Assembly (NCBI GenBank): GCA_032718475.1
Contig: JAUCBJ010007106.1
Coordinates: forward strand, 1-47,799
Reading direction: 5' to 3'
Length of the DNA stretch: 47,799 nt
Source: Nemertoderma westbladi
Taxonomy: Eukaryota > Animalia > Xenacoelomorpha
Shown: piece by piece, positions 8,321 through 47,600 of the stretch
Numbering within the stretch: position 1 is the stretch's first letter
How the letters are laid out: the number at the start of each line of letters is the position of its first letter
The notes under the pieces: model-generated
Told to the model about the DNA's origin: nothing
The model's input: only the letters and a program-made list of their open reading frames with translations
Databases searched by the model: none
Translations under genes and position numbers: made by a program

Positions 8321-8334
8321 AATTCTGTCCATTT

Positions 8335-9750
8335 GCTAGAGACATCGGTGTTTTAATTGACGAGCATCTTACTCTCGAGAAACAAATCAGTAAAGTTGTG
8401 CAGACTTCTTTTTATCACTTGAGAAATATTTCTAAGGTTAAACGGTTTTTCCCAGACGTGATCTTGAAATTTTAGTTCATGCGTTTATTTCCAACAAGTT
8501 AGATTACAACAATGCACTATATTATGGTCTACCACAACGGAGTATTAGGAAACTACAGTACGTACAAAACACTGCTGCTCGATTACTCTGCAATGTTCAT
8601 AAAAGAGATCATATCACCCCTGTGTTGAAAAAACTACACTGGTTGCCAGTTCCTTACAGAATCAAATTTAAGATTGTGGTACTGGTATTTAAATGTCTTA
8701 ATGGAATGGCGCCTACATATCTTATTGAATTAATATCTTTGTACTGTACTGTCCAACCCGTAAATTACGTTCTAGTAATACAATGTTATTGTCTACACAA
8801 CGTTACAATCTTGAAAATTTCGGTAGACGTGCATTCTCTGTAGCCGCCCCTTTGGTATGGAATTCATTACCGAATGACATCAGAAACACTTCCAGTTTAT
8901 TGTCCTTCAAACGTTTGTTAAAAACTCATTATTTTATTGAAGCTTTTAGTTAATATTTTATTGCCTCTGATTTTATTTATTTCATTTCATTTCGTTTTAT
9001 TTATATATTTATTGGTTTTGTAATTTGGTAAATTATTTATAAAATTAATCTTTAAGAAAAAATTAAAAGAGCCGTTTAATTGTTTTATTTAAAAAAGTTT
9101 CTTCGGCCGCTAGGCCAGGGATTACGCACAAAGTCTGACGACTTATTTCCAGTGCGGTCCCCCCAGAACTTTACTCCCCAGAGGAAACTCCAGTACTCAC
9201 TTAGCTACCACTTAAGGATACAAGGCAGAGATGCGCCCTGGCTGGTCCCTTTAAAGCATTCGTGCCGAAACGAAACTGCCCTGACCCATGTGAGGATCGA
9301 ACCCACGACCTGCAGGAGATGCAACCACTACACCAAGGTGGAACCTTGGTGTATTTATGTATCATATATATATATAACATTTTTATTTACTTAATATTGA
9401 TATTGTTTTTCTCGTATTATTGATTTTTAACCATAGAATGATTGTTGTTTTACTTATATGTACTGGATTTTATGTTCTCATGTATGTTTTTAATACCCAT
9501 AGGATGGAATATATACTAAAATCTCAATTTCGTAACAATTTTTATTTTATTATGAACTACATATTTTTACTGCAAATCTAGTGCAATCTATTAAATATTT
9601 TATATTATAGTCAGTTTTTATGCAATTCATGTTACATTAGTATGGTGTATTCTACGTATATTGATGTTCATATTTTCTTTGTACCAAAGCGCCTAGAACA
9701 TCGCGTATAGGCGCATTATAAATATATATTATTATTATTATATTATTATA
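8335..9750 (+). mobile_element. L2-clade LINE 3' fragment with 3' UTR
   Basis: ARDIGVLIDEHL..SFYHLRNI, LHWLPVPYRIKFK and WNSLP..FKRLLKT motifs; terminal hairpin GCGCCTA...TAGGCGC followed by a (TAT)n tail at about 9689-9750. Confidence 0.8.
9090..9345 (-). mobile_element. tRNA-derived SINE inserted in the L2 3' UTR
   Basis: Minus strand has A box TGGTGTAGTGG and B box GGTTCGATCC; the 3' boundary is approximate. Confidence 0.7.
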
Positions 9751-14537: not shown

Positions 14538-16760
14538 CTAGGTCGAGCGAACTCGGACAGTGGAAATGAGATCCTTCCAGGCTTCCCGATTCTCCATAGT
14601 TGTCGCAATTTCGTTTCTCCTAAGTTCAGTATCCCTTTCAAGTTGATCTATATATGTTATGGCCAGTCGTCCACGACTACGCTTTCCATGAGTTGGTTGC
14701 CAGAAAAGTAGATCTGGTATGACCTCGTCTTTACTTCACCAGCAGTGCCCACTGAATCTTAATCTGCGTTCACGGAGGGTGGTTGATACAGGTGGTATAG
14801 TACCATAAAGCTCGGCGTTTGTCATGTGTTGTCTCCAGCTGATGTTTAGGGCTGCCCTTAGTAGTCTTGTGTAGCAACCATCAATTCGTTGTTCAAGTGA
14901 TTTAGTCAGTGTCCAGGTCTCACCCCCATATAAAAATACACTTTCCACTGTGGCTCGAAAGAACTTAGTCTTCAGGTGCCTGGAGAGATCTGATTTCCAG
15001 ATGGTATCCATTTTTGATAGAGCTACCCAAGCCTTTGCTTTCCTAACTTCTATGTCCTTTTTGCTACTCTCTATCCATGATCCAAGGTACTGGAAGTCAT
15101 CGACCTTCCTTAGTTGATTATTATCAATGGTTGTCAAGTTTCCATCAACATTAAAGGTCATGAATTCGGTCTTTGTAGCATTTATATGCAATCCAACCTC
15201 CTTAGCGGCCCTCTCCACTTTATTTAGTAGAAGCTGTGCATCTGCTAGGGTATTAGAGAGCAGGGCGATGTCATCCGCAAAGTCGGTGTCTGTGACTGTA
15301 GTTGCCGGATATCTACTACTTCTGCGTTCTTGAAGTGTGAATCCCAGGTCTTCAACCTTTGTGGCCGTCCTCATTGCGTAATCCAGCACAATTACAAATA
15401 CTAATGGTGCTAATGTGTCACCTTGCAGTACGCCAGCCAGGATTGAGAAAAACTCAGTTTCACCATCTGGTGAGAGTACCTGCGCTTCTGTGTCACAATA
15501 TAACAATCCAATGCCAGCAACAATTACTTCTGGTATTCCATAAGCTCTTAGGATTTCAAGCATTTTACCTCTATGGATGGAGTCGAATGCCTTCTTGAAG
15601 TCCACAAAAGTCATGGCAGCGGGGAGATTCTTTGACTTAATTCCTTCAATCAGTCTCCGTAGTGCAAATATCTGAGCTATTGTTGATCTACTTGGTCGAA
15701 ATCCGTTTTGGCTCTTACGCAGTAGTTTCTCTATGTGAGGCCTAATCCTATATAGAATCATTTTATTGTATATTTTGGCAGCTACCACAAGCAGACAGAT
15801 CCCACGATAGTTTGTTGGTATGCCGAGATCTCCTTTCTTGGGGAGAGGCTTTAGTTGACCTTTAGTCCAAATTGGTGGTGGCTTTTCCCCTTTTAACATC
15901 CGGTTGCAAACATTCAATAATGGTCTGTTTAGCACTCCGGTTTTCCATATCTCCGCTGGGATTTCATCTAATCCACTCGCTTTTTTATTGGACATGCTTT
16001 TAATGCTTCTTTGGAGTTCGGCAGGTGTGAAGTCCCCTGTTTCTATAGGTAGTGTCTTGTCATATATTTTCCTTGTAGGGCTGACCTCGATGTTTGGTGG
16101 CTGCCCAAGCAAGTTGCTGAAGTGATTTTTCCACTTCCCAACACGTTCTTCAGGACTATCAGCTTTGAGGCGCCCCTTTGCACAACTTTTCCGACCAGAT
16201 ACCTCATTTACAGTTTGCCAGATAAGTCTTGATTGTTGCTGTATGTGAGCAGTTGTAATTGCTTCAGTTTTATCCTGTATGTAGTTTTCCTGGCTGATGT
16301 TGTAGGCCAATTTAAGATCGTCCTTAGCTTTCTCAACCTTGTTAATGTTTTCGGTTGTTGGTTGTTTGGTTTTAACTTTGTAGGCTATCTTAAGATCTTC
16401 TCTCTTACAAGTAACCTCAGAGTTTTGCCATGGCACATATTGTTTTCGTTTGGGTTTCTGGGGGATATGCCTCTTAGCTGATTCCTTGTGGGCTGTTATT
16501 ATAGTCTGGTATATTGAATTGGTGGATTGGTCTTCATCCATTGACTGAAGTGCTTCAAAGCGGTTTTGAACATCTACTGTATAAGCATCCTTTACAGCAT
16601 TGTTAGTTCTAAGTTTTTCCCAGTCATATTTGATTTGCTTGCTTGTCCTGGGTTTGCTGGCTCTCAAACTGAGTCTGATCTCACAGTCACAATTCTGTGG
16701 TCCGAACCAATTAGGTTGAACGAGCTGTATGCCTCGCAGTTGATCATGCTGTTTCTCCAC
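14538..16760 (-). pseudogene. RTE reverse transcriptase and C-terminal region
   Basis: 674-aa ORF with all RT motifs; past the TGA at 14736 the frame stays open to a TAG at 14538-14540. Confidence 0.9.
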
Positions 16761-16767
16761 TTTTTGT

Positions 16768-17430
16768 TTATGAGGATGTAATCCAGTTGTGCTTTGGTTC
16801 CATTAGGGTATTGAAAGGTAGCTTCCCCTTACTCTTTTCGAATGTGTTGTTTGTTGGTATCAATTTACATTCTTCCATTAGGTCTAAAAGTAAGTACCCA
16901 TTTATGTTAGAACTGGTGTTATAGGTGTAACCCTTGATGTCTTCTGGGCCAATTTGGGCATTCAGGTCACCAGCAATGACTTTAACATTGTGTTTCGGAA
17001 TGTCCTTTATAAGTCCAGTCAGTTCTTCATAAAACTTGACTGCTTGTTCTGGCTCTGAGGCATTGGTTGGACTGTAGCAACATATAACTGTTGCCTTGGG
17101 ATTCCCATCAAATGTTGCGATCACAACCCTGGAATTTATAGATTCGATGTTGTTTAGGGTCTTAAGTGCAAATGGGCTTAGCAGAATTCCTACTCCACCA
17201 ATTGATGCATTGGCCGAGTTTCTTACTGCTGAGCTTGTTACTAACGTCCATCCATTTCCAATGTCATTGTACTTCATGGCAGTGTCTTCATGACAAATCC
17301 GATGTTCTTGGATGCAGATGATGTCGATGTTATATTCCATTGCCAGAGCGACCATGTCACCCTGTTTGGTATGTGCTTTCAGCGTGCGTGAGTTCATTGT
17401 AGCAATCTTTAGTGTCTTTTTACATTTCAA
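16768..17430 (-). pseudogene. RTE APE endonuclease domain
   Basis: KIATMNSRTL, DIICIQEHR, GGVGILL, CYSPT and AGDLNAQIG. Confidence 0.9.
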
Positions 17431-18382
17431 CAGGTTGGTTCTTCTTTCTTCTCGGTCTTCTGTTCAAGTAGCCAATTTATCGACCCCAGCCTGGTGTACC
17501 ACTGGGGGACGCGGTCCTTTTTGACCCGGGCGACGACCGAGCCGGTATTTCTCCTGGAGGGTTCTCATACTCATATCTTTCAGTTGCGGGAGTAAACCGC
17601 TTGTGGTCGCAACTCCTACAAGCGTTTTCGCAGTAGATCGCCGTTGGTTGATTACCTTCCGCCGACCTTGTCAGCATGTATAGCCGTTGGTTGATTTCCT
17701 TCCGCCTATCCATGGCCTACAGCCCTGCTGCCGACTGTAGGGGTCCTTTTGTTACACCCTGAACCAAGTGTGCCTCCTGGGTTAGGTTACCTAACACTGG
17801 TAGAGGGGCATCCAGTATAGACAGGGCGGGGCGTGTATCATCTCTAATGCAGATGCGTATCAAGCCTTTGCCTTCAATGGTGCCCTAGGCGCTATAGCCC
17901 TCAATGACTTATTTAGTTGACGGGGCTGAACCAACCCACTCTTGATCAACTAAATAATGAATAGGCTATGCTTATCGGGCCTGCCCTACTGGGCTGGCAG
18001 CTACAGGTAGTACCACATTACTGCCATAGTGGTAGCAGGATCTGGGGACCTGACCTGACCTGAAGATGATGATTTGATTTGGTAAAGCGACTGTTTATTG
18101 TTTTGGTTAGAAAATCCCGCCTTAACCTGCTCCTTTCCATCAATTGGTAATTGTTTTTGGCTATAAAATGAGTGTTTTGCTACGTCATGTGGTAATCGAT
18201 TATCGACAACAACCACAAACTATTAAATTTAGAGTCTTTTACCACAGGCGCATATGGAATTCTATCTCATAGTCTATAAATCATGGAATCATGGAATGTT
18301 TTGGCACAGGCATAGTGACAGAGCCCGACATAGTCCGACAGACCAGAAATCAACAAATTTTGAATGTTTTGGCATAGATACT

Positions 18383-21300
18383 GTAGATAGATTTATTTAT
18401 ACATTATGTAAAAACAATAACAAATACACCAAACAATGTACCGGTATAAAGGTATTGTCCAACATAACATATAGGATTACCCCTAAAGCTTTGCAGCTTA
18501 TTTCCAAGGGGGTCCTTTATGTTACTTGGTTACAAATACAATATTACACTACGCTAACCTAAAACCAATATAAAACGTAATTACACTATGTACATGTACA
18601 ACTTTACCGAGAGCGTGACAATGCCCGACTCAACGATAAAGATGTAATGTACAGAACAATTAAAAAACGTAATTATAAAACGTAATTATAAAACGCAATT
18701 ATAAAACGTAATTACAGTATAAATAGTAAATAATTAATAATCTAATAACTTACTGTAGGACTATTGTACCTATTTTTACATTGCACACGGAGATGAGATT
18801 TAACTGCAGATTTAAAAGAATGTTGATTATTTAGGTTTTTAATTTCATTAGGCAGAGCGTTCAAATTTTTTATGCCGTTAAAAAAGAAAGTATCAGATTC
18901 AAAGGATTTACAATTCGGGAGGTAGAAGTTTGAAGCACTAGCTCTGGTACTGTAAGAGTGTGTATCGCGTACTCTGTTGAATTTTTGTTTTAGGTAATTG
19001 GGACATTTACCATTATACACTTTATGCACATGGTTAAGGCGTAGCTGCTTAACTCTACTATCTAAGTTAAGTAGTCCAGATTCAGAAAAGTCATCTGGAG
19101 TTAGGTGGTGCCTAGGTTTGTAGTCTTTAATAAATCGTACTACTTTATTCTGAGCTACTTGTAATTTACATTTAAGCTGTTTGGTTAAGCCTTCATACCA
19201 AGAAGAGCACGCATAGTCCATGTGACACTGTATTAAAGAAGAGCAAAGTAACTTGCGGGAGTCGGTGTTCAAACTATTTTTATTTCTGTATAGAAACCTA
19301 AGCCTACTGTTAACTTTCGAGAAAATATTTTTCACTGTACTTTCTCCTGATAAGCAGTTATCCAATGTGGCGCCTAAATATTTAACTTCCTTTTTATTTT
19401 CCATCTTATGTCCATTACTAGTGACTTCAAACTTAGTTACCTTCTTTAACTTTCTTTTGGAACCAAACAAAATACTTTCAGTTTTACCGTAGTGAATGGA
19501 TAGCTTATTATCAACCAACCACTCATTACAGGATTCTAGAACTGCACTTAACTTTTGGGAAATATGGATAGGATCTTTATGAGAGAAAATAAGAGCACTG
19601 TCGTCGGCATATAAAATGAGTTTAAAATCGGGATCTATACTACTTATCATATCATTTACATAGCATACAAAAAGCAGAGGACCTAATATACTACCTTGCG
19701 GTACACCACAGGTAATCTCTTGTACAGTAGACTGCGATTTGCTAATGACTACAGTTTGACCTCTGTCTGACAGGTAGGACTTGAACCAGTCTATAGAACC
19801 TACACCCATCAGGCCTAACTTACCAAGCAGAATTTCGTGATCTACAGTATCGAAAGCCTTTTGTAGGTCCAACATTACCATACCAGTATATAAACCCTTT
19901 GCGTTATTACATCTAATTGTATCAGTTAAGTTAATAAGGCAGGTGTCTGTAGAATATGATTTACGAAAACCGGACTGAAGTTCATAGATCAGATTTAGCC
20001 TACTAAGATGTGCCTCCAGCTGTAGAAAAACAGAACGTTCTAGAATTTTAGATACAATACTTAAGATACTAACAGGTCTGTAATTACAGGGTTCTACTTT
20101 ACTATTCTTTTTTTACAGAGGAACAACCTTAGCTAATTTCAGTTCGTCTGGTACTACATTATCTACGATAGAGTAATTAATAATAAAAGTAATAGGCACT
20201 TTAAGTACTTCAGCACCATCCTTAAAAAAACGGGCAGGTATTAGATCTAGACCGGTACTTTTTGAGGCTGATAGGCTAAGTAGATTTTTAAAAACGAAAT
20301 CCTCAGAAACGGGTTTTAAAAATAACTTTTCTGAATTTTGTAACTTTTCTAAATAAAAATTATTTAGAGTTTCGGACCCTATACTATATTTATTACTTGA
20401 TAACGGTAACCTCTTAACTAAATTAGAGGCAACATTAGTAAAATAATTATTAAATAAATTACTAACTAGAGTATGATCATGAATCAGCTCACCGTTATCT
20501 TGCAGAACAATATTCGATTTAGATTTAAGGTTTTTATAACCTAAAGATTTTAGGGTAGACCATAGACTTTTAGGATTATCTTTATTCTCACTTATTTTGT
20601 TGTACAAATATTCAGATTTAGCTTTTTTTATTTCCCGTTGGACAAGGTTTCTATATTTGCAGTAATTATTATAATCAGCTAAAACACGGTATTTCCTAAA
20701 TTTATACAAATAGTTATCTCTTTCTCTGATATTACTAAGAATACCCGAGGTCATCCAGGGCTCAGTGCGTTGTTTAAGACTAATTTCTTTAATTGGTGCT
20801 ACAGTATTAAGTGCCTTTAAAAATATATCTTTAAAAACAGTGTACGCAAGGTTAATGTCAGCGGCCTTAAAACAGGGTTCCCAGTCAGAATTAACTAACA
20901 AACTTAAAAAGCGTTCCTTGCTGTAATTTTTCATAGACCTAACTGTTACTGTTTTATGATCCCCGAAAAAAGATTTTTGTGTCTTTCTTGTGCAAAAAAC
21001 TATAAAATGATCGCTTAGACCTATAGGTAAAACCCCAGATTGAGAAATAATATCGGTATTATTACAAAGGATGTGATCTAGTAAAGTAGAAGTTTTACTG
21101 GTAATTCTGGTAGAATCTCGAATAATTTGTTTTAAACCAAACAAATTTAAAATACTTTGGTACTGTTTACAGATGGGGGATGCTTTGTGATGGTAACAGA
21201 TATTAAAATCACCTAAGAAATATATTTCACAGTCTGACCTAAGATTACATAAAATTGTATTTTCAAAATTTTGCAAAAAATCTGATTGTTTAGGGGGCCG

Positions 21301-22020
21301 ATATAAAGTACCGATTAAAATAGGTTTAGTTTTAGGAAGTAAAAGTTCCACCAGTAAAACTTCGTCACAAGTCTCTAAATCTTCCCTACGATTAAAAGCT
21401 AAATCACATCGAATGTAAGTACAGACACCACCACCGTGTCTGTCCCTATCCTTACGTAAAACTACGTAATTCTGTAATTATCAATATAAATTTCTCCATC
21501 AGAAACACTATCATCGAGCCAAGTTTCAGAGATTGTTAAAACTGCTGGGTTGGATTTATTGATTAAAATACGAATTTCGGAAAGTTTTGGAAGCAGAGAT
21601 CGTGCGTTTAAGTGCAAAAATGCAGACCTTTTTTCTTAAAAAAATTAAAAGTTTCACTCTCAGCATCACTTGGAGTTTGCAGAGGCGATGTGAGAAATGA
21701 ATCGTCGGTTTCTGATTCTAAAATTGTATCATGAAAGGGAAGTTCGGTAAAAATACAGCTATTGCAGAGAAAACTTGGTTCAAGATTGTTTCTGGTGGAG
21801 AATAAATTACTGCGTTTCCTACGGTAACATTTTAAATGTACAAATGTGTCACAACTCTCGCATTGGACGATCTTACTCCGAGAGTTTGTTCCTCGTTGAC
21901 AGACGGGACAGTTGATCTTCGGGGCCCGCGTCCTGCTGGGTCCTGGGTTGGTCTCAATATCCATAGGCATAGGCATGTTGAAATCAACTGTCTGACAGTC
22001 CAGAAATCAGCAGTCTGACA
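18383..22020 (-). mobile_element. CR1-group LINE ORF2 (2A-like motif, PHD, APE, RT), frameshifted
   Basis: DIETNPGP; PHD CPVC..CESC..H..C..CNSC; APE YRPP, GDFN, LDHI and SDH; [21 protein letters not shown] and YADD. The 3' UTR has a ggaccccc..ggaaataag..ggggtaatcc stem and AATAAA near 18395. Confidence 0.9.
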
Positions 22021-30500: not shown

Positions 30501-31841
30501 ATGTTCGACATAGACCGTATCGTGTAAGTCGATAGGATGATCAGTAGTTAAGAAGTCCATATACGTACCATTACGCTGCGTATATCGAGCAGCGAATTTT
30601 CTATAGGCCTAGTCCAACTCGCGCGAGCTGCTCTTGGGACATTGGCGGTTCGATATAACGACCATCGTCCTCCGCAGCAGTTGGACTAACGTCGCCGCGT
30701 ATTAAGCTATCAACAAATGCTTGCAAAGTAGAGTATATCGCTCCCCGATACCAAGACCATCTTCTATCAACTCCGTCATATCTGCTATATATGAGTTTAT
30801 CCATATTATAATGAGTTTATATTTAGGCGAGCGGGCGTCGCTGCCTACCCCAATCAACCCCCGGACAGTACGAGATCCTCAGCGCCGATGTGTCGTCGCC
30901 GCCGTACTTTCGCCAACGACGTAGCCGCACAACGACAACGACAACCGGCACAAGTCACTCGACTGTCCGTCCCAAAGGCTTAGATGTACTTCAGGTTTTC
31001 CTTGGAGAGTTAGGTTACTTTTACGATTGCGACTGGCTACTGTAAACACACCTTAGCAGTAACATTCACCTATAAACTCACAAATACCACACACACAACT
31101 TGTCACAAATTACACACATTCGGGCCATTTGTCCGTTAGTCAATGCCTTCCAGAATGTCACTGTATTAGTATGTATCCTTGGATACTAGTAGTGCGCTAT
31201 TTATTCCCTATGCTATTCAATGGGACAAGCTTTCTATTGTTCTTTTAACTCAATTCTAATTCTAGCGTGGTTGTTGCTATGGTGACATTATGCAAAGCTA
31301 GCGGTAGAATTAGGGTAGTTCCAATGCATACAGATCTGGGATGTTATTTAATAGTATTCTTTAATAGTCAATGTTCTGTTTTATACATGACTTTATGAAT
31401 TTTATCGGCTATTGACTATGTTTGGGAGACTTTCACACACTCATACGCATGATAAGATAAATCTCCGCTCTACCGTGGCTGATTGCGGCCAAAAAGCAGT
31501 TATGGTCATTTCAGAAAAAAACCTAAAAAAAAATAATTTCATTTCAATAAATATATATAATTTCATTTCAAATAAATGTAATTTCATTTCATTTCAAAAA
31601 ATGTATTTAATTTCATTTCAAATAAATGTATTTAATTTGATTTAGAATAAAAATGTAAATAATTTCATTTCAGAAAAGTATATTTAATTTCATCTCAGAT
31701 AAATGTATTAATTTTATTCTACTTAATTTTTGAAATCCGCTGTTCAGTCCATCCAACATTAACATGCAGAAAGGTGTCATAATAATTTTCATTTTCATTT
31801 GTGTTCTACCACATTTCAGTAGGCCTACATTTCATAATATT

Positions 31842-32974
31842 ATGGCATCATATAACTTGAATGAAAAGTTGACTAACTATTATTGGTGTGGATTTTCGCA
31901 CCAAGAAATAAAGTCTTTACTTTCTAAAGATGGCATTGAAACATCCACAAGATCCGTACGAAGGTTGTTGGCAGATTTGGGATTAACTAGACGATACAAT
32001 CCTAACAATTTCGACGACGTCTGTCTTGCTACAGTATTAGGAATGAACTTCATACTAAAGGAACTACGTCGGGATACAGACAGATGCAACAAACGTTGCT
32101 TTACAATTACAATATATATGTTCCTCGAACAGTAGTTGCACATATTCTGAATATATTGGACCCCATGTCTGTTGCACGACGAATAGATAACAGGGTGACT
32201 CGTCGGAGTTATTTTTCTAAAGGCCCAAACTATATTCATCACATAGATGGTTGGGATAAACTTAAACAATTTGGTCTAACTGTTCACGGGGCTATAGACG
32301 GTTACAGCAGAAAACTGATGTGGTTACAATGTGGCCCGAGTAACAATGACCCACGTGTTATAGCGAATTACTTTGTGGACTGTATCCAAACTCTAGGTGG
32401 TGTACCTCATGTTATACGAAGTGATCGTGGGACAGAAAACGTTAACGTGGAATTGTTGCAACGTTTCTTTCGGTTACAACACATTGATGGCCAGGCTTTC
32501 AACAACGCTGTTTACATTTATGGAAAAAGCACTAGAAATCAGAGAATAGAGGCATGGTGGTCTAAATTCCCCATTTTAGGAATGTCGCAATGGATTGAAC
32601 ATTTTACTCAACTAGAAATGCGTGGAATTATTGACACATCCAGTCCTATATATATTGAGCTTATCCGTTTCGTTTACCTGAACTACTTACAACGCACTCT
32701 AGATAATATTACTATAAAATGGAACAGTCATCATATTAGAAAGAGTGGTCTCGTCTCTCCTGGAGGTAAGCCCGATATTCTATTTCTTGATTTGCCTAAC
32801 TATCTACACCGTGTAGATCCCGATGATTTAGAGTCAATTCGACCATTCACTGAGCATGAACCCAAACTACATGCAGATTTATGTATGCTATCACTTGATT
32901 ACATCACTCAAGTTGACCATATTCGAACTCCAATGACCTGTCAATCATTGCGGACGACTGTGCAAATACATTAA
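31842..32974 (+). pseudogene. IS3EU-type DDE (integrase-core) transposase with N-terminal HTH; one 5-bp frameshift
   Basis: GPNYIHHIDGWDKLK..HGAIDGYSR, RSDRGTEN, NQRIE and WNSHHIR motifs. Removing CAGTA at 32032-32036 fuses ORFs 31764 and 32084 into about 375 aa with AIRNEL..GYRQM. Confidence 0.88.
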
Positions 32975-33050
32975 CTTACCTTTTAGATAATCTAATAAAT
33001 GAATTATAATATATTGTTGTATATTAAAATAAATTAATAAATATCTTTTG

Positions 33051-33240
33051 TTCGTTCCAGATAGCTGGCGCAGGGGTCACTCGCTTTTTGCATATAGCTG
33101 TGAGGTCCCGGGTTCGATCCCGTGCTGTGCCAGCTACAATTTCGGTGCGCAAGTTACGTAAAGCGATAAAGAAAAGGGTTGGGTAGTTCACGCGGGGAGT
33201 TAGTCTGGCGCGAATTAAATTCATTAAAACCAATCAATCC
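33051..33240 (+). ncRNA. tRNA-Ala(TGC)-derived structured element (SINE or Pol III RNA) inside the transposon
   Basis: A box TGGCGCAGGGG (33066-33076), B box GGTTCGATCCC (33111-33121), TT-TGC-AT anticodon-like loop and a 12-bp stem at 33062-33073 / 33125-33136. Confidence 0.6.
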
Positions 33241-33569
33241 GTTACATATTATTCCTAGTTATCAACACTAAAAATTAGTAACAACAAAAAGTGTATAAAC
33301 TTTATACAGCAGAGTAACTTAATTATTATTTAAGGTCGTTTTAAATACAACATAATTATGTACTACAGTATTAAATAATAATTAATTTTACTCTGCTGTA
33401 TCAAATATGCATTATGATAAAAAACGATAAGGATCTTGAAGTAAACTTGAATCAATTTCAAAATGCAACTATAACTATAACAAACGGAAAATAACACTAA
33501 AACAGTATATATACATACTGTACATACAATATGAGTTGTTACTACAGTATCTACAAGAAACGGTTCAAT

Positions 33570-35738
33570 TTAAGGCATTCCAAATTCTTTACTGTTAAGA
33601 ATATCATCGAACAATATTTCAGCAAATTCTTTGGCCGATGGCAGTATATAGCGATCGTTTAATGGAAATCGAATAACTTTTCCACATGTATCCGCTCGCA
33701 CGCGTCTTCCAGTATCACCCACATCCGTTCGATCAAATTCTATGCGACCCTCCCCTTGAAAGGTTGGATATTGTGAACCGCTACCGAATTGCAATATATC
33801 TCCCAGAGATAGAACAACAGTACGAGAATCTCCATCATCATCAACAACAACTGTTGATAACTCCTGTTTACCGACTCGTTTTAAAAACTGGTAAAATTTA
33901 AATGTAATAATCGTCGTCTCCTTTTCACGCTCTCGCGATCGTTCTGTACTCAAGTAGTTTGGTACAAAGCACAGCTTAACTTCCTCGTAGGTGACCTCGC
34001 GATGGGCAAGTAACTTACAGCTTTCTTCAGGAAATGACGTCATTATATAATAAACACCATATGACTTGAGGCCTTCCCGAAAGCAGGCAATTTCTTCTGA
34101 GGCAGAACAGTAGACAATGTGGCGTGTGATTAATTGAACCACCTTTGTTTTATCCTCAAATGGTATATTAGCATTATTAATTCCCATATCGAAGCGTTCT
34201 GGGAAATCAGCCAAGCAACGAGTAAACGATTCAGCTGTGTCTGCCAAGTTCAGGGATGCTAGTTTTTGTAAACACTCTTCATCCTGAGGGATTTCATTTA
34301 AATCTGGATAAATTGGTAAATTCATTATCGCCCGGGCAGTTGATTGGCTAAAACAGTGTGGTCCGGCTTCACCATTAATTAAGGCCAGAGCAGCTAATTT
34401 TCCAAGGTTTTTGTATTTATCCAATTCACATTGATTGTGCCGAAAGAGGAAGTTCGGATACACTCCCCGAAATAACATCGGCGGTTGGGTAGAGAAAAAC
34501 AGCGAAAATAACTCTCTTAGGGGACCACCAGTGTCCACTGCCAATTCACCTATAAACTTTACCATCACTACTGGAGAAGTAATATCATCAGTTTCTAGAA
34601 ACTCATAAAGGTTGTCAACCAGTTGACATCGCGGCACCTCGATCACAGTGTGGGATGGATTTGCAACCTTCCAAGAATCATAAGTCTTTGAAATAGTGCC
34701 CTTGAAATCCGTGCTGTCGACTTCAAAGGTGAGGAGGTCTGCATTATCACTCACAACTATATATTGTGAAGGCTCTTGAACTTCAAGAATTGGAGAAGAA
34801 TCACTACTGGGTGGCTGTGTCTCCAAATTAAAATGTTGTGCACGTAAATTCCTGACATGTTCAATCAGTGGTAGAGGATCCGGATTATCTTCTTTTTGTA
34901 CCTCTGGAGGAACCTCTTCAACTTCATCAATATCATCGACATCCAGAATCTTGGCCGCATCTATTTGTTCTGATTCCTCAAAGTCTGCGAGTGTGCAGCA
35001 GCGAAAACAATACATTTCGTCTCTCGGCCGAGATGTTCCACATTCTGGACATATTAGACGCCTCAATGGTAGTTCTCGAGGGTTGATGTTCTTGTCACAT
35101 GATTCGTTACCATCAGATGGTTGAATATCGATAGAGGTTGATGAGATATCCTCACGTTTCAGTCTACAAATTATATTAATTTTAGGCATACCTACAATAC
35201 AACGTTCTTCTATATAATGATTGATTTGTATAGCTCTCAACACTATCATCTAAAGAATCAACGGCAGTAAATATATATTCATCCTTCATGTAGGGTTTGT
35301 TGAATTTTTTTAGGGTGTTGCAAATTCCATCAGGAAATACTTTGTTAACAATGAAATCCCTAATTTCATTCATTGGCAGATTCATTTGAAGTTGCAGTCG
35401 AACTAGATTTGATGCCCCCATCGGACTTATGAGCAATTGAGATCCATTGCCAGTGTCAACACTAATCCGACAGGTTACGATCTTTGTACCTACCCTCGGG
35501 CGACCAAGTCGTTTTTTGTTACGGCGAGGGGTATTACAGTAATTAGCTGCCTATTGCGGCTAACTGATGATAAAGTTGCAATGTCGTCAACACTCATTCC
35601 TTCACTTGCACTCGATGTATTGGTAGTCTCAGTTGGCGATCCTCTGACACTCGCAATATCATTGACTTGTGTAATGAAGCTTCGTCTTACATTTGCTAAT
35701 CGCAATTGATGAAGCTGATAGTCTGAGTTTGTGGACAT
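33570..35738 (-). pseudogene. HECT-domain E3 ubiquitin ligase (G2E3-like), transposon cargo; two frameshifts in the N-terminal part
   Basis: VKFIGELAVDTGGPLRELF (HECT N-lobe), ILQFGSGS, RADTCGKVIRFP (catalytic Cys motif), terminal EFGMP and a CxxC..CxxC zinc ribbon. ORFs 35490-35738, 35182-35436 and 33570-35249 join into about 720 aa. Confidence 0.85.
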
Positions 35739-37459
35739 CCTCCCTCACCCTCATCAATAATCAATAAAAGATGGGTGAGTCTATAGTAGTAGGTTTATTA
35801 TGTAATCTGAGAGTAAGGCTGTCAGACGGGCTATTCGGTCCGCTGTTTGCTCATTAGTGGATTGGATTAAATTACCATAGTGTCCAACCGAAACTGAAAC
35901 AATATGCCTATTGAAATATAAAATTCTGTAGGCCTAAGTGATAGGACTTATGCTACACAAGGACATTAAGATTAACTTGCCCTGTAACAGGCTGCAGGAA
36001 GACAGGGCTGTTTATAGGCCTATACAGTAGTTTAATCTTCACAAATGCAATGCAGTAAAGATACATACTTAACATTTAATTTAGTATCATTACAGTACGT
36101 TCATGTATTATTGGCATACTGGTACCGGTACCGGTACAGTAGCCTCTAAAGGCAACATAAGAACTGATAGGATAAGAAGAATGCAGGACTCAGGTATATG
36201 CTGTCTGTCATTCATTTTTTGAAATGAAAATAATTACATTTCCCTGAAATGAAATTATATACATTTTTTGAAATTAAAATAATTAGGCCTACATTTTCTG
36301 AAATTAAATTAAATACATTTTTTGAAATGAAATTATATACATTTTTTGAAATGAAAATAATTACTTTTCTGAAATTAAATTAAATAGGCCTACATTTTTT
36401 GAAATGAAATTATATACTTTTTTTTGTTGCTGAAATGAGCATAAATGTTTTTTGGCCGCAATCAGAAATGAAATTATATACTTTTTTCTGAAATGACCAT
36501 AAATGCTTTTTGGCCGCAATCAGCCACGGTACCGCTCCCTTGATCTATTAATTAATGGAATTTTGGGAACTTTATAAATTGCGTAAAAATGGCAATTTAT
36601 TAAATTCATTAAAAGGCATGAATTTAAATTTATTCCCTGAAATTTTATTATTTGATAATTAAATGGACATATTTTGATTCTAGAACATGTCTAGGGACAC
36701 AAGATCCTTAATTCTATGACAATTGTCTTTTTTAAGAATATCGGTAAATGCTACGATATCTTAATTGACTAGAATTGTTGAAGGATCTGAATTTTACAAA
36801 TTTTGATTTATTAGATTTGCAAATATTAAATAATTAATATTTGAGATGGGCACCGATTTATTCCAGAACTTGTCTGGGGACGTTAACCACTGATTCTAGA
36901 AATTGTCTTTCAAGTATATCGGTGGGTGCCGCGATATCTTAATCGACTAGAATTACAGATGGTCAAAGGGTTTAACAGATTTATTTTGCGTTATACGCTA
37001 CTGTTAAAGGGACATCACGCTACTATATGTATTATTTAATATACGGTATGAGAGCAATATCGCACGAAGCAATGTCAGTGTGAAGAGGCAAGTCGTTTCC
37101 AAGGTCTACCCAGAGCTTGGTTTAGCCGAGACACGAGGATCTGAACTTTGCATTCCTAATACTCTGCCTACCAATAATACTTAAATATAGTAGTGGCTTT
37201 ATTGTACTTTAATAAGTACGGCTATTTCATCTTACTGTAGTTACGTATTTATAATAGAATACGGGCAGTAAGGAAAGAGAAAAAATAATTATTTCTTCGC
37301 CGTCTCTCTAAATATAATATAAGTGATTACGTACGTAATAAACACGAACATATGGCACTATTCTACAAAATAATCGCTAAATAATATTCTACTAAATTAA
37401 ATAAAACGATTATAATAAAATTACATAGTAATACATACATAAATATAAAAATAATAATA

Positions 37460-39806: not shown

Positions 39807-41603
39807 TTAAGTTGGGGAGTCCCTAGATGTCGGTTGGATTAGGGAAGTGGTCGTGGGAAGAGTTTCTTGCCTTCCATAGTTTCCAGAGAGCTCTCTGTCT
39901 CTTTCCAGTAAACATAAACGACCCACTGGGCGATTGAGCTGTTGAGTCTCAAAGACTATCCCTGGTTTCTTAAAGTTCCGCCGCATGACGACGAGCTCTA
40001 CTGATCGCACCAAACCATCGCTCGAGATATAAGTCTCGATGATACGTCCTGTTTGCCATCGCTTACGTGGGAGATCGGGGTCCACAATAAGCACCATGTC
40101 TCCAGCGCTGACGTTTTCTTGCTGCGCAAACCACTTAGTTCGAAGTTGTAGAGTGGGCAGGTAATGTTTCTCGAAATGGTCAGCGAAACGACGGGATAGC
40201 AACTGCATAAGTTGCCAGGTTCGACGGCAGTACTCGTCTCCGTCTGTGATCTCCGATCGTGGGAGCATGGCTACGGGTTTCTTCAGTAGAAAGTGCGCGG
40301 GTGTTAGCGCTTCCAGGGAATCCGGACTTGAAGAGACTGGCATAAGCGGTCTTTCGTTGAGATAGGCGGCGATTTCCTCCATTAACGTCCGCAATAGTTC
40401 GTCGGTGAGATAAGCGCGACAAGGTACAATAAAGTGGAACGCAGTCTTCACGCTCCTAATCAATCTCTCCCAACTTCCTCCCCACCAAGGGGCGTCGGCG
40501 GCGTTGAAGGTCCAGCTAGACGCTGTTATCCTTAGCTGATCGTCCACCTGTCTTTTGTTCCAGTCCTTTACGTAAGCTTGAATTTCGTTGTTGGCGCCAA
40601 TGAAGTTCGTTCCCTTATCCGATCTCATCGTGTTACTGGTTCCGAAGCGAGCGATCTGTCGTCGTAAACTCAACACGAAGCTGTTGGTGGATAGATCGTT
40701 TACCATATCGAGATGGATAGCTCTACAAGTCATACAAACGAAGATGACACACCATCTCTTGACTATAGTCCGGGCACGATATACTTCAATAGGGCCAAAT
40801 AAATCCACACCGGTATTAGTAAAGGGTGGTTCATAGAAGCTTACTCTTTCCCTAGGTAATTCTGCCTCTCGCTGTGTTAAAGGCCTACTGAATGCTTTCC
40901 TACAGGGTATGCAGTTCCTAAGAACTTGGTTCAGAGCCCTACGGGGTTTATAAAAATAGTAGCGAGTTCGAATTTCGCTCAGAACTCGTTCTCTACCAGC
41001 ATGGTACAGTTTGCTATGAACATCTACAATTATCTTGATTTGTATGTCAAGATTTCTAATGAGGATGGGAAACTTAGTGTCAAAGGATAATGGGGCGTTG
41101 GTTAGCCTACCTCCAACACGTATTAACCCATCTATCATGGTACTAGAGAAGCGATCCCTTAAGCGCATCTGTGGATTTCTTAACAACAGGAAATACTTAT
41201 TGGAATCCTCATAGCATTGTAGAAGTCTCAGCATCTGTTTGTTGGTTTCATCATGCTCCTGGTAACTGATCTTTTCCTTTAGAAACCTGTCGGATATCTT
41301 GTATTTAGGAAGATCTTTAACAACATGGACTCGTGCAGATGTTGATGGAGCATCATCACTATTGGTCTTTGTCCCGGAGTAACGATGATGAAAACATTGT
41401 TTCAAATAGGTAACAGCTTTACAGAGCCGATTCCAGGAACTGTAGTGACGTATCGCTCGCTGCAAGAGAGGTGAGAGTCCTTGCGAAATATCTGGTATTC
41501 CAGATTTCCAATCCTTGTCACGGATTTCCAACGGATTTAGTCGTGGCGGTGGGTTTCTGATCCAAAGCATCCTCTCCGGAAGTAAATAATACCGATAGAT
41601 CAA
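39807..41603 (-). CDS. BEL/Pao integrase (HHCC zinc finger, DDE core, C-terminal DUF5641-like domain)
   Basis: LIRVGGRL, H..LYHAG..CIPC, GVDLFGP, RSDKGTNF, GGSWERLI, LNERPL, LTPAHFL and WQTGRI. Confidence 0.93.
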   Translation of the reverse strand: MIYRYYLLPERMLWIRNPPPRLNPLEIRDKDWKSGIPDISQGLSPLLQRAIRHYSSWNRLCKAVTYLKQCFHHRYSGTKTNSDDAPSTSARVHVVKDLPKYKISDRFLKEKISYQEHDETNKQMLRLLQCYEDSNKYFLLLRNPQMRLRDRFSSTMIDGLIRVGGRLTNAPLSFDTKFPILIRNLDIQIKIIVDVHSKLYHAGRERVLSEIRTRYYFYKPRRALNQVLRNCIPCRKAFSRPLTQREAELPRERVSFYEPPFTNTGVDLFGPIEVYRARTIVKRWCVIFVCMTCRAIHLDMVNDLSTNSFVLSLRRQIARFGTSNTMRSDKGTNFIGANNEIQAYVKDWNKRQVDDQLRITASSWTFNAADAPWWGGSWERLIRSVKTAFHFIVPCRAYLTDELLRTLMEEIAAYLNERPLMPVSSSPDSLEALTPAHFLLKKPVAMLPRSEITDGDEYCRRTWQLMQLLSRRFADHFEKHYLPTLQLRTKWFAQQENVSAGDMVLIVDPDLPRKRWQTGRIIETYISSDGLVRSVELVVMRRNFKKPGIVFETQQLNRPVGRLCLLERDRELSGNYGRQETLPTTTSLIQPTSRDSPT

Positions 41604-44600
41604 CCGCAGGTTTAAACAACTTCGATTTACTCGCTCGAGTTTTGGGTTTAACTTTCTCCGCTCCCTTGGCCTGTCTGATCTCTGCTGTTGTGAGATGAGG
41701 AGGCCATTCTTCTTCTTCCCTGTAGAGAAAGTCGGGTCCTCCTAACCATTCGGGAGTATTTACCAATTCCTTTGGAGTCGCTCCTCGGGACGCGATGTCT
41801 GCTGGATTAATCGTTCCGGGGCAATGTCTCCATTGGTCTATCGTCGTGCGACTAAGTATGATGGCTACCCTGTTGGTAACGAAGACGCTGAACTGACAGA
41901 CTTCATTGGTTATATACTCTAACACGAGTAAAGCTTCGGTCCAATAGACAGTTTTCTCTAATGGATAGTCAATCTGTTCGGTTACATTCCGGCCGATGGC
42001 TGTAGCGTATAGAGCCGCTTTTAACTCCGCTCGAGGAACTTTCAACTTGTTGTTGATTAATGCCTTAGAAGTAACCAAGGCGACTTTGATTCCATGCGGA
42101 GTTTCCACTCTTAGGTAGGCTACTATACCTATTCCCATATCGCTGGCGTCTCCAAACACATGGAGTTGATAGGAATACGTAGGGAGAACATGACCAAAAT
42201 ATGAACGGGAAATTATAAAATCCTCGATAGCCGGCAGAGAATCTTCCCATTCCATCCACTTCTTCAATAATTCTCCCTTAAGTGGATCGTCCCATGAGTG
42301 GTTTTCAAGCCACATTTGTTGTACCAAACTACGAGCAATCAATATAACTGGGCTAATAAATCCCAATGGATCGAAATAAGTGCTCAGTATACTTAAGCAA
42401 ATCCGTTTGGTTCGAACTGGATTATCTCGCTGTTTTAGCTGGAAAAACAGGATATCTCGCTCTGTGTCCCATTTCAAGCCGAGTGTCTTGGTTTCTGGCA
42501 GATCATCTTTGATCAAATCGAGATCTTTCGCTCCTCGATCCTCCGCAGGGATCGACTCCAGAAACTCACGGGAGTTGCTGGTGAATTTGGTTAATCGAAA
42601 TCCACCTCTTTTTAAGCACTCTACCGTTCCTTTAGCGACCTCAATGGCTTCCTCAACTGATGGGAGGGACTTCAGATTGTCGTCCATGTATATGTCTCTC
42701 TTGATGTTGTCGATCACTTCCTTAGAGAAGGCCTCTCTGTTGTCCTCTGCAGTGGTACGCACTACCGAACAGGCGTTGGAAGGGCTTGAGATTATCCCAA
42801 AGGCCTGGATGGTCATCCAGTACTCCACCGGTTTCTGGTTGAGGTCTCGTTCGGGCCACCACAGAAATCGTAGACTATCTCGATCCCTATCTAACACCTT
42901 GACTTGTAAGAACATGCCTTCTATATCGGAGGCGAAAGCAATCGAATATTGTCTCAATCTTAAAAGAATTCCCAACAAAGATTGAAGCAAGTTGGGTCCG
43001 GGTAACAATTCAGAGTTAAGGGATTGACCCATGTAAAGAGCGGAGCCATCAAACACTACTCTCACTTCGTGCGGCTTACCGGGTTTAGGAACGTAATGGT
43101 GAGTTAAGTAATACGTTCTTTCAGTCACAGGTGTTTCTTCCGGTACTCTCTCCGCGTATCCCTTACTAATAAATTTTTCCAGCTGTGTTTGATACATTGC
43201 TTTAGCTGAAGAATTAGCCGTAAGGCGTCGATGGAGTTGCGCGATTCTTTTTTCCGCTAAAGGTCTGTTATTGATGAACTTCGGTTCTTTCTTGCGGAAA
43301 GGTAGACCGACTTCATACCTACCTTGATCTTTGAGGAAACGTGTAGTTGTCTCTTGGATCTGCTTGGCCCTTTCCTCTTCCACCGACAAGGCTTTATCGT
43401 AGGAATTGGGCTCTACCGCCTCTTGCGTAAAGAATCGTACGGCATGTTCATCCCGAATCTTGGCATTGCAACGCTCAATGACGTCATTTAACTCGTCGTT
43501 ATAAGCTTCTCGTTCAGATTGATAGAGAAGTTGACATAAGTTAACTTGGTTTTGCCAAGTCTCGTTTTCTTTAAGGAGATCGATGGTATTCTCCTCATCA
43601 AAAAGCTGGTGAACGTCGTCGTTATCTGAGGAGTGTGGAATTCCCTCAGTTGAATCGTCTCCTTCACTAGTATCATCTTCCCATTCACTCATCTGGCAGA
43701 CTCTCTCTTGCGGTAGTCTTTCTCTGAGTGTTCTACGGGAAGGGCCAGTAAAGTACCAACCTACTCTAGCTCTTACCGCATAGGTCTGTAGGGGCTGCGG
43801 TTGAGCAGGCCGTTTCTCTAACGTCTCCAGCGCCTCATGCGCGTTTTGGCCGATGAGTATTTGCACTCCAGGATAATCAGTCTGGAATCGAGGTATGTTA
43901 AGATGTTGGATGCTCTCATCCTCGTCCCAATTATAAAGGTCTGCTTGAGTAGTAGCGAAGTTCTTTATAGCCACCATTTTCACTGACCTTATGCTATGTT
44001 CTCCTAGTTCGTCTTGTGGGGTGGACAACGCGCCTACATAATAATCAGCTGTTATTGTAGATTTCCAAACTTGCATAATGCCTGACATGTTGAGCTTAGT
44101 TTGGAACTTGGGTTGCCCAGCAAATATATCTTCGGCTAGTTCTTTGTCGATGAATGTTCCTGTACTACCGGAGTCAAGGAGGGCGTTCACTACATAACTC
44201 CTCTCAGGTCCGTGAACCCTTACTTGCACCACAGGAAACTCTCGGATCCCTACATTGGAAGATGGCTCTTTCCAAGATGGTTGTCGTTCAGAAGTAGTTA
44301 AAGTAAAGTCGTTGTCTGTATCTTTTTCATATGTGAGTGCTCGATACACTGCGGTATTTATCATGTAACAGGATTCGTTTTCGTCGGAGAACTCGTCTGT
44401 ATAGAATCCTTCCATCTCAGATTGATCAGTGTCGTTCACATCACTGAATTGGACATGTAGCTCGGAATCACTTACCTGATTCGGACTATTTCGATCGAAT
44501 TCAGCGTGCAACAAGATATGATGTTTCGCACCACACTTTGCACACCTTATGTCAGAGAAACAGGTTCGCCGTTGGTGTCCTTGTCTGAGGCAATTATAAC

Positions 44601-47600
44601 ATAACCGCTTATCCCACATGACTTCGCGTCTCTCCGTTAATGATTTCTTTAGAAATTCATCACACCTATTCAAATGGTGGATCCCGTCACACAGCGCACA
44701 TTTTGGTTTGATGTTACTTACCTTATTCTGAGTCACATTGTGTACACTGGCCTTTTCTTCGGGCTTTCTCACCTGAATTCTCTTGGGAGACGTGGGAGGG
44801 GTTTTTCTTACCTGTTCTCTCCTGTCATTTGCTCGAGACTTGAATTTACTTACCTGATCTTTAGGCATTTTATTGACATAATAAGATCTATCAGTGTCTT
44901 TCCCGCTATCTTCTCCTTGAGAAGTCTGGCTTTCGCCGTCGTCTGTATAACACACTGGTGTTACCTTTCTCCTAGAGAAGGGTTTTTCACTTACCTTGTT
45001 TTCCGGTGTCTTCTCTCGGGATTGCTTGAGGAGTTGCAATTTCACTTCTCCATCCAAGAATGACATGAGATCAGTCATGGTAGGGTCTCGTCGTTGTTGT
45101 TCCATCATATATAGTACTTTCTTATCCCAGCGTGTGCCTACCCCACCTTTCGGTAAAGTAGAAGCCACAGCTCCAATGACCATAGAACTTTGGTATTCAT
45201 GAGACTTACCTAACCAATCTAATTGTCTACAGATCTCTTGAATCTCATCGGAAAACTCTATTATCCCACTGCTGATGAACTTTCTGGGCGCTACCAATTT
45301 TGCATATAAATACTTAGCGATATTATTCCTATTACCATACCTGATGTTTAGTGTGTCCCAAACTTGTCTTAATCCGTCTGGATGTCCAATAAACTTTAAC
45401 GCCATTAACTTGGGAGATCCTTCCAAGCACTCGATGAGGTATCTAAGTTTTTCTCCATTAGATAGTACAGAGTTCTGTATGTTATCTTTATAATATTCAT
45501 TAAAAGGTAACCATTTCATCTCATCTCCATTGAATTTGACTATCTCTCCCACCTTCACCGCTTGCCGGGCTTCGGTTCTAGCCATTTGACGCGTAAAACT
45601 TTCTTGGGCCATCGTGTTATTTAATATCGAATTATCGGTATATAAATTTCTCGGATTATGATCAGGTCTATAGGGAATGTCATTATCAACAGGTCTATAA
45701 TTACCCTTAATAGGGTTCACTATAGGAGTTTCTACTTCGCTAGCAGTATATATGCGTGTAGGCTCCACACCTTGCGCATGCGATACTTCAGACCTAACAG
45801 GTTGACACATTGTTACAGAGGGTGGTGGTATACCCTTTTGGGTATTTACTAATTTATCACGTTCGAGCGCGATACTTTGCTGCACTTCTTGCAACTCTAG
45901 CCTACTTTCCCTTACTGTGCCCTTGAATTGCTGGACAGTCTCCTGCATCTGCCCGAGCAGGATATCCATCCCCCGCCGTCTCTCGTCCACCCATTCGACC
46001 GCCGAAGCGGGAGTCGCCAACGTTGTAGCGGGCGGACGAGGGACAACGGGCGACAAATTATGAATATTTCGCTCGGAGTCCAGGACCTGAACTGTCCCCT
46101 GGGCAATTCTACGGGGCACAGGTAGCTTAGTGCTATGCAGAGGGAATTTAGAGGTAGTTTCAGGGAGCACAGGTGTGTCTATCACCGAAGGGGTGATTTC
46201 AAGAACAGGCCTAATTATTTCAGGCTCATTTACTATAGTAGGAAGTCTTTCTATTTTAATTATTTGGTCTGTGGGCTCTGTACTACCTAAGTTGGTGTTA
46301 TTTAGTTGCCTTCTAACAGCTGGAGGCAAATCAGGCAATTTCTGACGGTGGAATGTTCTTTTACGTCTACTTAGACGAGATCTATTTCCCTTGCCTTCAG
46401 TATCGGTGGTATCGCCTTCCTCAGATGATGTATATCCCTGTCTTTTGGGAGTAGATCGATTCATCATCTGCATATTACTAGCTGTTAACTGTTTATTTAT
46501 GCAGTCTTGATTCTCCTGAATGTTTTCCAATTCTAATTGGGTGGTTTCTTCAGTCGCTCTCCGTTCGGCTTCTGCCACTGCCTCCGCCGCTTTTCTTTCC
46601 GCTACGGCCACCGCCTCTGCTGCCGCTTTTGCCTCTGCCGCTGCCACTGCCGCTGCCGCTTTTGTTTCTGCTTCGGCCGCTGCCTTTGCTGCTGCTACTG
46701 CCGCTTTTGCCTCTGCCGCTGCCACTGCCGCTGCCGCTATTGTTTCTGCTTCGGCCGCTGCCTTTGCTGCTGCTACTGCCGCTTTTGCCTCTGCCGCTGC
46801 CACTGCCGCTGCCGCTTTTGTTTCTACTTCTGCAGCTGCTACTGCTGCTGCTACTGCCGTTGCCTTTCTGTCTTCTATACGTTTTTTCTTTATTTGTTCT
46901 TCCTGGACTCGTGTGATGCGGAGTTGTTCATCAAATTTAGCCTGATTCGCAGCCCTCATTTCCACATCGATGGCATCCAACACAAACTTGGTTCCTTCAC
47001 TATTAGGGCTAAGTCCCTCTAACCTTCTCCTCAACTCGTCATCACCTAAAAAACGTTGATAGTCTGACAGATAAATGTCAATGGCATCCCTCTTATGCGG
47101 TTTCTCTGCCGTCGCTTCACTTTCCACTTGGGAAAAAGTAGCGTCTGTTGATTCTCCATGGGTTGATCGCTCCTCCAGCTGAGCTTTCCACTGAGCTGTT
47201 CCTTGAACCTGGAGACTCACCCGTTGAAACCAAGTCTTTACGGCAACTTGCAACGACGTGTCTTGTCTTCGTTTAGAAGCCTCCTCAAAGGCTGATAAGA
47301 TTAGCCTGATTCGTAGAATTCTTTCTCTAACTTGATAAAGCAGCAATCCCTGCTCTTGAGGTCCTTGAGGTTGTTGAAACAGTTGTTCTTTTAATCGCTC
47401 TATAGAGCTGAAGAATCCCTGTGCGTATCCGGCTGCGGACCTCTTCCACACAGCTGGATCGATGGTTTCCTTGGCTACTCCCATCCGGTGTATGTCTTCC
47501 CAGGCAGCTTCTGATAAATCAAACGGGAGTCCGGGTCCGGGGAAGTTCCATTGCGACTCGACCATGGACTTCAGTTCTTCCCTTGTGTATCCAGCATAAC

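Follow-up and report, generated by a model that had tools for sequence, protein, structure and literature searches.

The 5,061-bp transposon copy at positions 31471-36531 of Nemertoderma westbladi contig JAUCBJ010007106.1 is a decayed IS3EU/GingerRoot DNA transposon whose second gene encodes, as judged from profile comparison and structural modelling, a divergent HECT domain. Very probably, selection maintains this HECT gene as a partner of the element, and its product is predicted from the sequence to be a working ubiquitin ligase. Regarding its role, a probability of about 0.4 is assigned to the reading in which the ligase marks proteins in the transposition complex of the element itself for clearance by the host. 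The whole 47,799-nucleotide stretch analyzed is termed the window. The two genes are convergent, as an earlier note on this DNA had claimed, and the principal features are as follows.

31465..31470: left target-site duplication, CCGCTC
31471..31520, plus strand: left terminal inverted repeat (TACCGTGGC...), 50 nt
31842..33009, plus strand: IS3EU-type DDE transposase gene, ATG at 31842, catalytic D at 32246, D at 32423 and E at 32549
33570..35738, minus strand: HECT ubiquitin-ligase gene, 720 aa on reading across the breaks
33573..34670, minus strand: HECT domain, both lobes, Cys codon 33684-33686, terminal Phe in EFGMP
36482..36531, minus strand: right terminal inverted repeat, pairing with 31471-31520
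36532..36537: right target-site duplication, CCGCTC

Pairing of the transposase with the HECT gene

The co-occurrence of both genes, a check proposed in the earlier note, was scored from the transposase side because the HECT alignment is too diverged for a pattern scan, and HECT genes were detected with an iterated HECT profile. Of 601 pattern matches in metagenome contigs, at least 538 proved to be transposase relatives, and the best 80 of these were kept as loci. A HECT gene was present in 28 of these 80 loci, always downstream and in the opposite orientation, at 425-2,633 nt from the transposase stop. Most loci without the gene were short contigs, and it was found in 17 of the 21 loci whose downstream flank reaches 2.5 kb and in 14 of the 16 where it reaches 3 kb. 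The 58 kb of upstream flank contained none, as against 149 kb of downstream flank. When transposases were clustered at 90% identity, the HECT gene was present in 24 of 69 clusters, and in 15 of the 18 with long flanks. Eight of ten locus HECT frames scanned passed the Pfam cut-off. Complete two-gene elements with TAC..GTA ends and matching 6-bp duplications can be observed at L041 (5.1 kb) and L050 (9.4 kb), while L053 displays both ends with unequal flanks; a right-end motif lies beyond the HECT gene in eight loci, namely these three and five more. The absence of the reading frame from other copies, which the earlier note had named as evidence against its proposal, was not observed, since contigs of public sequencing runs and related families carry the HECT gene. 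One candidate protein, P0299 (HECT plus rve), was not scored as a fusion because it looks like a gene model joining neighbouring elements.

Domain and predicted activity of the HECT protein

The match of the window ligase to Pfam HECT (22.2 bits, E = 1.3e-4) lies just below the cut-off of 23.9 bits; as a single sequence the ligase had no sequence match in the PDB, and a single HECT protein used as query recovered no locus from the metagenome contigs. A profile of 43 homologues matched 59 PDB sequences, all of them HECT ligases, the best being E6AP (4.5e-26) over both lobes. In the profile alignment the Cys of the ADTCG motif aligns with the catalytic Cys of E6AP. This residue is invariant in the 43 homologue rows and is kept in 77 of the 79 aligned stretches covering that column in an alignment of 155 rows. 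An aromatic-Gly C-terminal end, as in active HECTs, was present in 36 of the 43 aligned homologues. Both lobes were modelled with a predicted local distance difference test score (pLDDT) of 92.6, and the Foldseek comparison of the model with HUWE1 gave E = 7.6e-14 and a template modelling (TM) score of 0.64. The protein has the bilobed C-terminal HECT domain, the catalytic Cys and the terminal Phe of a HECT ligase. The HECT domain and Cys motif proposed in the earlier note are thus borne out by profile and fold although the Pfam score is sub-threshold, and its C-terminal FG is found within the terminal EFGMP.

Close homologues are multi-copy, as exemplified by three 679-aa proteins of one 90% cluster on different Paramuricea clavata contigs, which carry the name G2/M phase-specific E3 ligase. 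When compared with the six long host HECTs found, the window ligase displayed 22-23% identity or no alignment. Nesting within a recent host gene clade, likewise named in the earlier note as evidence against its proposal, was not seen within this set of six.

Selection and exchange of the HECT domain

The catalytic Cys was kept in 26 of the 28 HECT loci; the other two are nearly identical to each other and have broken frames, and their sister L059 retains the residue. In the 20 rows that reach 200 aa, median pairwise identity was 20% for HECT and 43% for the corresponding transposases. Proportions of synonymous (pS) and nonsynonymous (pN) differences were computed for pairs with at least 45% identity and at least 80 codons. 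Diverged HECT pairs gave a pS of 0.69-0.90 and a pN of 0.25-0.40, with similar values for the transposases. The ratio of nonsynonymous to synonymous rates (dN/dS) for L014/L059 was 0.30 in HECT and 0.22 in the transposase, and that for the near-identical pair L076/L078 was 0.56. The HECT gene is under purifying selection, and the neutral evolution considered in the earlier note was not observed, dN/dS being below 1. Taken with the HECT match and the family-wide presence of the gene, this agrees well with the accessory HECT ligase, encoded by the element itself, that had been proposed there.

The distances of HECT and transposase correlate weakly (Mantel rho 0.33, p = 0.002). Trees were constructed from 18 rows, leaving out rows below 200 aa and the duplicates L040 and L078; they match at some tips and disagree deeper. 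Three HECT-tree clades were rejected on the transposase data by the approximately unbiased (AU) test (p = 4e-7, 2e-6 and 0.006), for groups picked after both trees had been seen, with the window transposase forming a long branch and with metagenome contigs that are possibly chimeric. For these reasons, swapping of HECT domains between transposase lineages is likely, as far as the sequences indicate, but not proven.

Element ends and family assignment

The near-perfect terminal inverted repeats and the 6-bp target-site duplication of the earlier note were recovered: the 50-nt arms are 98% complementary, and CCGCTC is present on both sides. The termini are of the TAC..GTA form, TACCGTGGCT ... 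AGCCACGGTA, and the terminal 10-mer (TACCGTGGCT) has two matches in the window, both at the element ends, against a chance expectation of 0.16. Further repeats lie inside the arms.

31534..31718: AT-rich subterminal array, 7.4 copies of a 25-nt repeat, with a mirrored counterpart at the right end
36213..36465: right subterminal array of 24-nt repeats with a partial second copy of the terminal repeat

These subterminal arrays are likely transposase-binding sites.

Empty sites were sought in public DNA runs sharing one organism label. A joint from 31464 to 36532 was present in contigs of runs X1, X3, and X4, from two studies; it omits 5,067 nt, that is, the element and one duplication, and six letters fit both sides. 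Run X2 contains the same continuation as a loose end. Summed contig depth was 10^5 to 10^6 in the flanks and about 10^2 within the element. This excess of flank depth over element depth places the insertion within a host repeat of very high copy number, of which the empty sites may represent further copies; the element boundaries are confirmed whichever origin the empty sites have. The insertion-site repeat (31000-31470, 36532-37000) contains an internal repeat of about 180 nt on its right side.

The transposase matched Pfam rva_4 with E = 1.6e-33. Among 547 candidates 299 homologues were identified, the named ones being from cnidarians, a limpet, a brachiopod, and a sponge. The catalytic residues D81, D140, and E182 (main-frame numbering) are conserved, and in a by-eye comparison with the available part of the PMC10045372 supplement, 41 of 67 core residues are the same as those of IS3EU-4_CGi. 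No upstream HHCC motif was seen in the translated N-terminus of the transposase, and a transposase profile search of viral contigs gave no match. According to the accessible portion of PMC10045372, IS3EU elements have TA..TA ends (TAY..RTA) and 6-bp duplications and are grouped with GingerRoot; PMC8232023 and PMC10853768, both citing Kojima 2019, state that IS3EU encodes two proteins, the second unnamed. TA..TA termini with inverted repeats, the 6-bp duplication, a DDE core without HHCC and two genes are all found here, so that the IS3EU assignment made in the earlier note stands on the ends, the duplication and the rva_4 core, the reference core having been compared by eye.

N-terminal region of the ligase and its relatives

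Two features were located upstream of the HECT domain in the window's protein.

34950..35051, minus strand: CxxC-CxxC zinc ribbon followed by an acidic helix (weak Pfam match; phmmer E = 0.02 to P0270; motif listing)
35160..35517, minus strand: basic patch KKRLGRPR and a probable ubiquitin-like (beta-grasp) domain, cut by the frameshift at 35224

The pair of zinc ribbon and acidic helix is also present in relatives P0162 and P0270; the ribbon, named in the earlier note, gave a weak Pfam match (E = 0.02-0.09). The beta-grasp segment suggested there is seen as a fold in the corresponding domain of L005, which was modelled confidently (pLDDT 91.2) as beta-grasp/ubiquitin-like, but the window segment itself, with 18% identity to it in a MAFFT alignment, gave no hidden Markov model (HMM) match to that domain's profile. 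The best fold matches of the L005 domain were Polycomb RAWUL/ULD domains (Z = 9.1, root-mean-square deviation 2.2, 78 aligned), tied with generic ubiquitin folds. The core of an AT-hook is RGRP. Since KKRLGRPR is without the R of that core, a nuclear signal is the likelier of the two functions that had been offered for it.

Seven relatives (L003, L005, L007, L012, L035, L050, and L059) share a layout on the minus strand upstream of HECT, running in the order SAM-like start, basic patch, ubiquitin-like domain, acidic coiled coil, UBX-like domain, and HECT. The UBX-like domain upstream of HECT was matched in four relatives with E = 1.5e-4 to 7.7e-3, two of them just above the Pfam cut-off. The N-terminal domain occurs as two remotely related types (hhalign probability 70%), type 1 in L005, L007, L012, L050, and L059 and type 2 in L041, L053, and L066, and the type tracks the main transposase split in all eight typable loci. 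An Atlas search with a homologue's N-terminal domain returned unnamed eukaryotic clusters only. Complex prediction without alignments for the L005 transposase and its ubiquitin-like domain gave scores of 0.01 and 0.00.

Proposed role of the ligase

In the proposed process, the HECT protein would enter the nucleus through its basic patch, its catalytic Cys would take ubiquitin from a host ubiquitin-conjugating enzyme (E2), and the N-terminal ubiquitin-like domain would bring the ligase to its target. The first candidate target would be transposase still on the DNA after strand transfer. Subsequently, host p97 or the proteasome would remove the tagged transposase, which would allow repair of the 6-nt gaps and limit transposase levels. 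DDE strand-transfer complexes need active removal, as in the case of MuA by ClpX. The element's own complex is preferred as target on two grounds: the putative binding domain stays with the transposase whereas the catalytic domain is exchanged, and the UBX-like domains of the four relatives would recruit p97. Once a selected partner gene is granted, the chance that its target is the transposase complex is put not far short of even.

Several observations weigh against this reading. A complete 2.9-kb element at L023:296-3180, related to the HECT-bearing L050, has both ends, a 6-bp duplication and a transposase and no HECT gene. Four of the 21 long loci are also without HECT and hold a long interspersed nuclear element (LINE; L063), a protein kinase (L048), a G-protein-coupled receptor fragment (L075), and nothing recognised (L026). 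The kinase at L048:2956-4352 on the minus strand is convergent and occupies the usual place of the HECT gene, and according to the available part of PMC12730594 an alpha-kinase stands at that place in rust-fungal IS3EU. From these cases together it follows that the ligase is not an absolute requirement. The association of N-terminal type with transposase clade comprises eight loci and one split, and linkage of the N-terminal region to the right terminal repeat explains it equally. Furthermore, no UBX match was found in the window's protein; the N-terminal domains of homologues vary (SAM, CUE, RING, Neuralized), which fits changing host targets too; and the human and mouse G2E3 HECT is described as non-functional in the accessible part of PMC3673628. 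As a separate observation, the L048 kinase recalls the alpha-kinase of the rust fungi, and the ends of the L048 element were not found.

The ligase could instead act as an anti-silencing factor: host silencing proteins of the chromatin or small-RNA kind would be ubiquitinated and thereby removed, after which the element is transcribed. This is plausible, yet on the whole doubtful. It draws on the same selection evidence as the partner-gene reading, and the highly varied N-terminal domains and the swapping of HECT would fit a conflict with the host. The TET/JBP genes of fungal IS3EU have been proposed to counter methylation (PMC12730594, in the part available), and the L005 ubiquitin-like domain best matches Polycomb RAWUL/ULD; that match, however, lies less than one Z unit from unrelated ubiquitin-like domains. 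Pfam scans revealed no chromatin-reader domain in the window's protein, and the extra domains are mostly ubiquitin- or p97-binding types rather than substrate readers. The transposition complex is slightly favored over host silencing factors as target.

It is improbable that the HECT protein is a non-catalytic partner or decoy, serving as a transposase scaffold or a trap for E2 or ubiquitin in the manner of the inactive G2E3 HECT. The divergence of the domain, the Pfam score below cut-off and the homologue names pointing to G2E3, whose HECT is reported as non-functional in PMC3673628, would agree with such a role, but retention of the Cys across the loci and covering stretches despite about 20% identity, the aromatic-Gly end typical of active HECTs and the confident model of both lobes argue for activity. 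That a host HECT gene was passively captured on a single occasion and plays no part in the element is very improbable; this reading was rejected, being contradicted by the family-wide pairing, the retained Cys and the saturated synonymous sites. GingerRoot elements are stated to pick up host gene fragments (PMC6839031, in part), and in the decaying window copy a single one of the 16 shared coding differences is synonymous; such single-copy decay, however, is expected for any transposon gene, and the constant place and direction of the gene in 24 of the 69 transposase clusters (90% identity), together with the deep divergence, speak against capture.

State of the copy and other features

In this copy the transposase is split over two reading frames and the ligase over three. 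The transposase is broken by 5 extra nt at 32030 and by 2 extra nt at 32950, the latter affecting the last residues; the ligase is broken by 5 extra nt at 35535 (TACAGTA) and by 2 missing nt at 35224. The element had been called self-contained, which does not hold here: three frameshifts leave neither gene open, and the frameshift at 32030 deprives the element of an intact transposase frame. On reading through with X at the breaks, no stops occur; the ligase gives 720 aa across its two breaks, the same length as noted earlier, and the transposase 62 + 304 aa. The run contigs differ by 2 nt at 35224, and for this reason an intron at that position was rejected. The DNA needs no intron, which agrees with the earlier description of the genes as intronless; this is not general, as the HECT gene of several relatives lies in separate frames resembling exons.

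The breaks were compared in X1, X2, and X3, three of six listed runs, representing two samples and two studies. The contigs of all three are without the window's breaks (-5 nt at 32030 and 35535, +2 nt at 35224, -2 nt at 32950), and thus the family had open genes recently. The difference lists of X1 and X2 contain no stop, while the X3 contigs have their own stops and insertions or deletions, so that further decayed copies exist. Internal deletion derivatives were revealed by contig joints. The three runs share 16 coding differences, 14 of them affecting HECT and 2 the transposase; 1 of the 16 is synonymous. Near-identical copies with open genes seem to be present in the same species. No single run contig spans the element, and an intact full-length copy is an inference from partial contigs. 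The family was recently active, its copies differ little, and the window copy is dead.

Two of the 5-nt differences and one further feature between the genes are located as follows.

32030..32036: TACAGTA, site of the transposase frameshift; contigs of X1, X2, and X3 lack 5 nt here
33062..33137, plus strand: hairpin with a B-box-like motif between the genes, fold z = -1.94, loose ends at 33104/33144
33516..33522: TACTGTA, a second 5-nt insertion, intergenic, from run contigs and sequence

All three 5-nt differences (32030, 33516, 35535) sit on TACAGTA or TACTGTA, which is the footprint left by Tc1/mariner excision, and the insertions look like such footprints in sequence. The motifs number 8 in the element, where a shuffled element is expected to have 1.1, and 60 in the other 42.7 kb. 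Their density, 68 in 47.8 kb, suggests heavy Tc1/mariner hopping in this genome.

The intergenic hairpin is probably a remnant of a short interspersed nuclear element (SINE) not conserved in relatives. A portion of it recurs at other places in the genome, its motif was found in 1 of the 80 loci, and tRNA and Rfam scans of the hairpin and tRNA scans of 33 of the 80 loci gave no match. Elsewhere in the window, translations indicated LINE-type reverse transcriptase/endonuclease frames (5693-8843, 14736-17463, 18742-22006) and Gag-like and BEL/Pao-type integrase frames of long terminal repeat (LTR) retrotransposons (137-2536, 39807-47022).

Relation to known systems and significance

The element resembles IS3EU/GingerRoot in its TA..TA ends, 6-bp duplication, integrase-like DDE core and two genes, and the structure and function of IS3EU are described as largely unexplored in the part of PMC11934779 available. 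Within the partial IS3EU/GingerRoot literature covered, which extends to neither Repbase nor the 2019 Kojima review, no text names the second gene as a HECT ligase. The word HECT is absent from the main text of PMC10045372, PMC12730594, PMC11934779, PMC6839031, PMC10853768, PMC8232023, PMC4455052, PMC9741609, and bioRxiv 2021.09.26.461848, and literature searches found nothing linking HECT to IS3EU. Repbase names such as IS3EU-4_CGi_2p indicate that the second protein is annotated there, and the pairing may therefore be in Repbase. Rust-fungal IS3EU similarly carry a gene for a protein-modifying enzyme opposite in orientation to the transposase; they differ in having an alpha-kinase and a TET/JBP dioxygenase, with no HECT in the portions of text and supplement available (PMC12730594). 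The Helitron deubiquitinases VTD and OTU (PMC9741609) are likewise ubiquitin-system enzymes on eukaryotic DNA transposons, but their action is to remove ubiquitin, and they lie as domains within the RepHel open reading frame, whereas here a separate ligase gene is carried by a DDE element.

On the host side, PMC3673628, in the part available, describes GL-Metazoa as a divergent class IV HECT family beside G2E3, treats both as host genes and reads their divergence as lost constraint; the word stem "transpos" occurs nowhere in it, and in the accessible portions of the HECT surveys PMC3673628, PMC2837046, and PMC11353290 transposons are not mentioned. Vertebrate G2E3 is stated in PMC3673628 (in part) to have three N-terminal PHD/RING-like fingers before HECT, while no PHD or RING match was obtained in any window frame scanned. 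In contrast to the G2E3 and GL-Metazoa genes as treated there, the HECT genes of the present type lie inside transposons, keep the Cys and have none of the G2E3 PHD/RING fingers.

The pairing may explain the multi-copy "G2E3-like" genes of animals. The 20 copies of G2E3 in the hadal sea cucumber are reported as host adaptation in the available part of PMC9700323; such expansions may be transposon copies. As a tentative generalization, animal IS3EU as a group would carry an active, exchangeable, and ancient HECT module through which ubiquitin and p97 clear away either the transposition complex or host silencers, and "G2E3-like" genes, GL-Metazoa, and possibly the HECT of vertebrate G2E3 would be transposon genes or their derivatives. 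The conserved HECT second gene makes it possible to test directly in what way the ubiquitin system serves a eukaryotic DDE element, whether for clearance of its complex or for the disarming of silencing. Although the window copy is dead, the near-identical open copies that appear to be present in the same species make the family usable for such assays.

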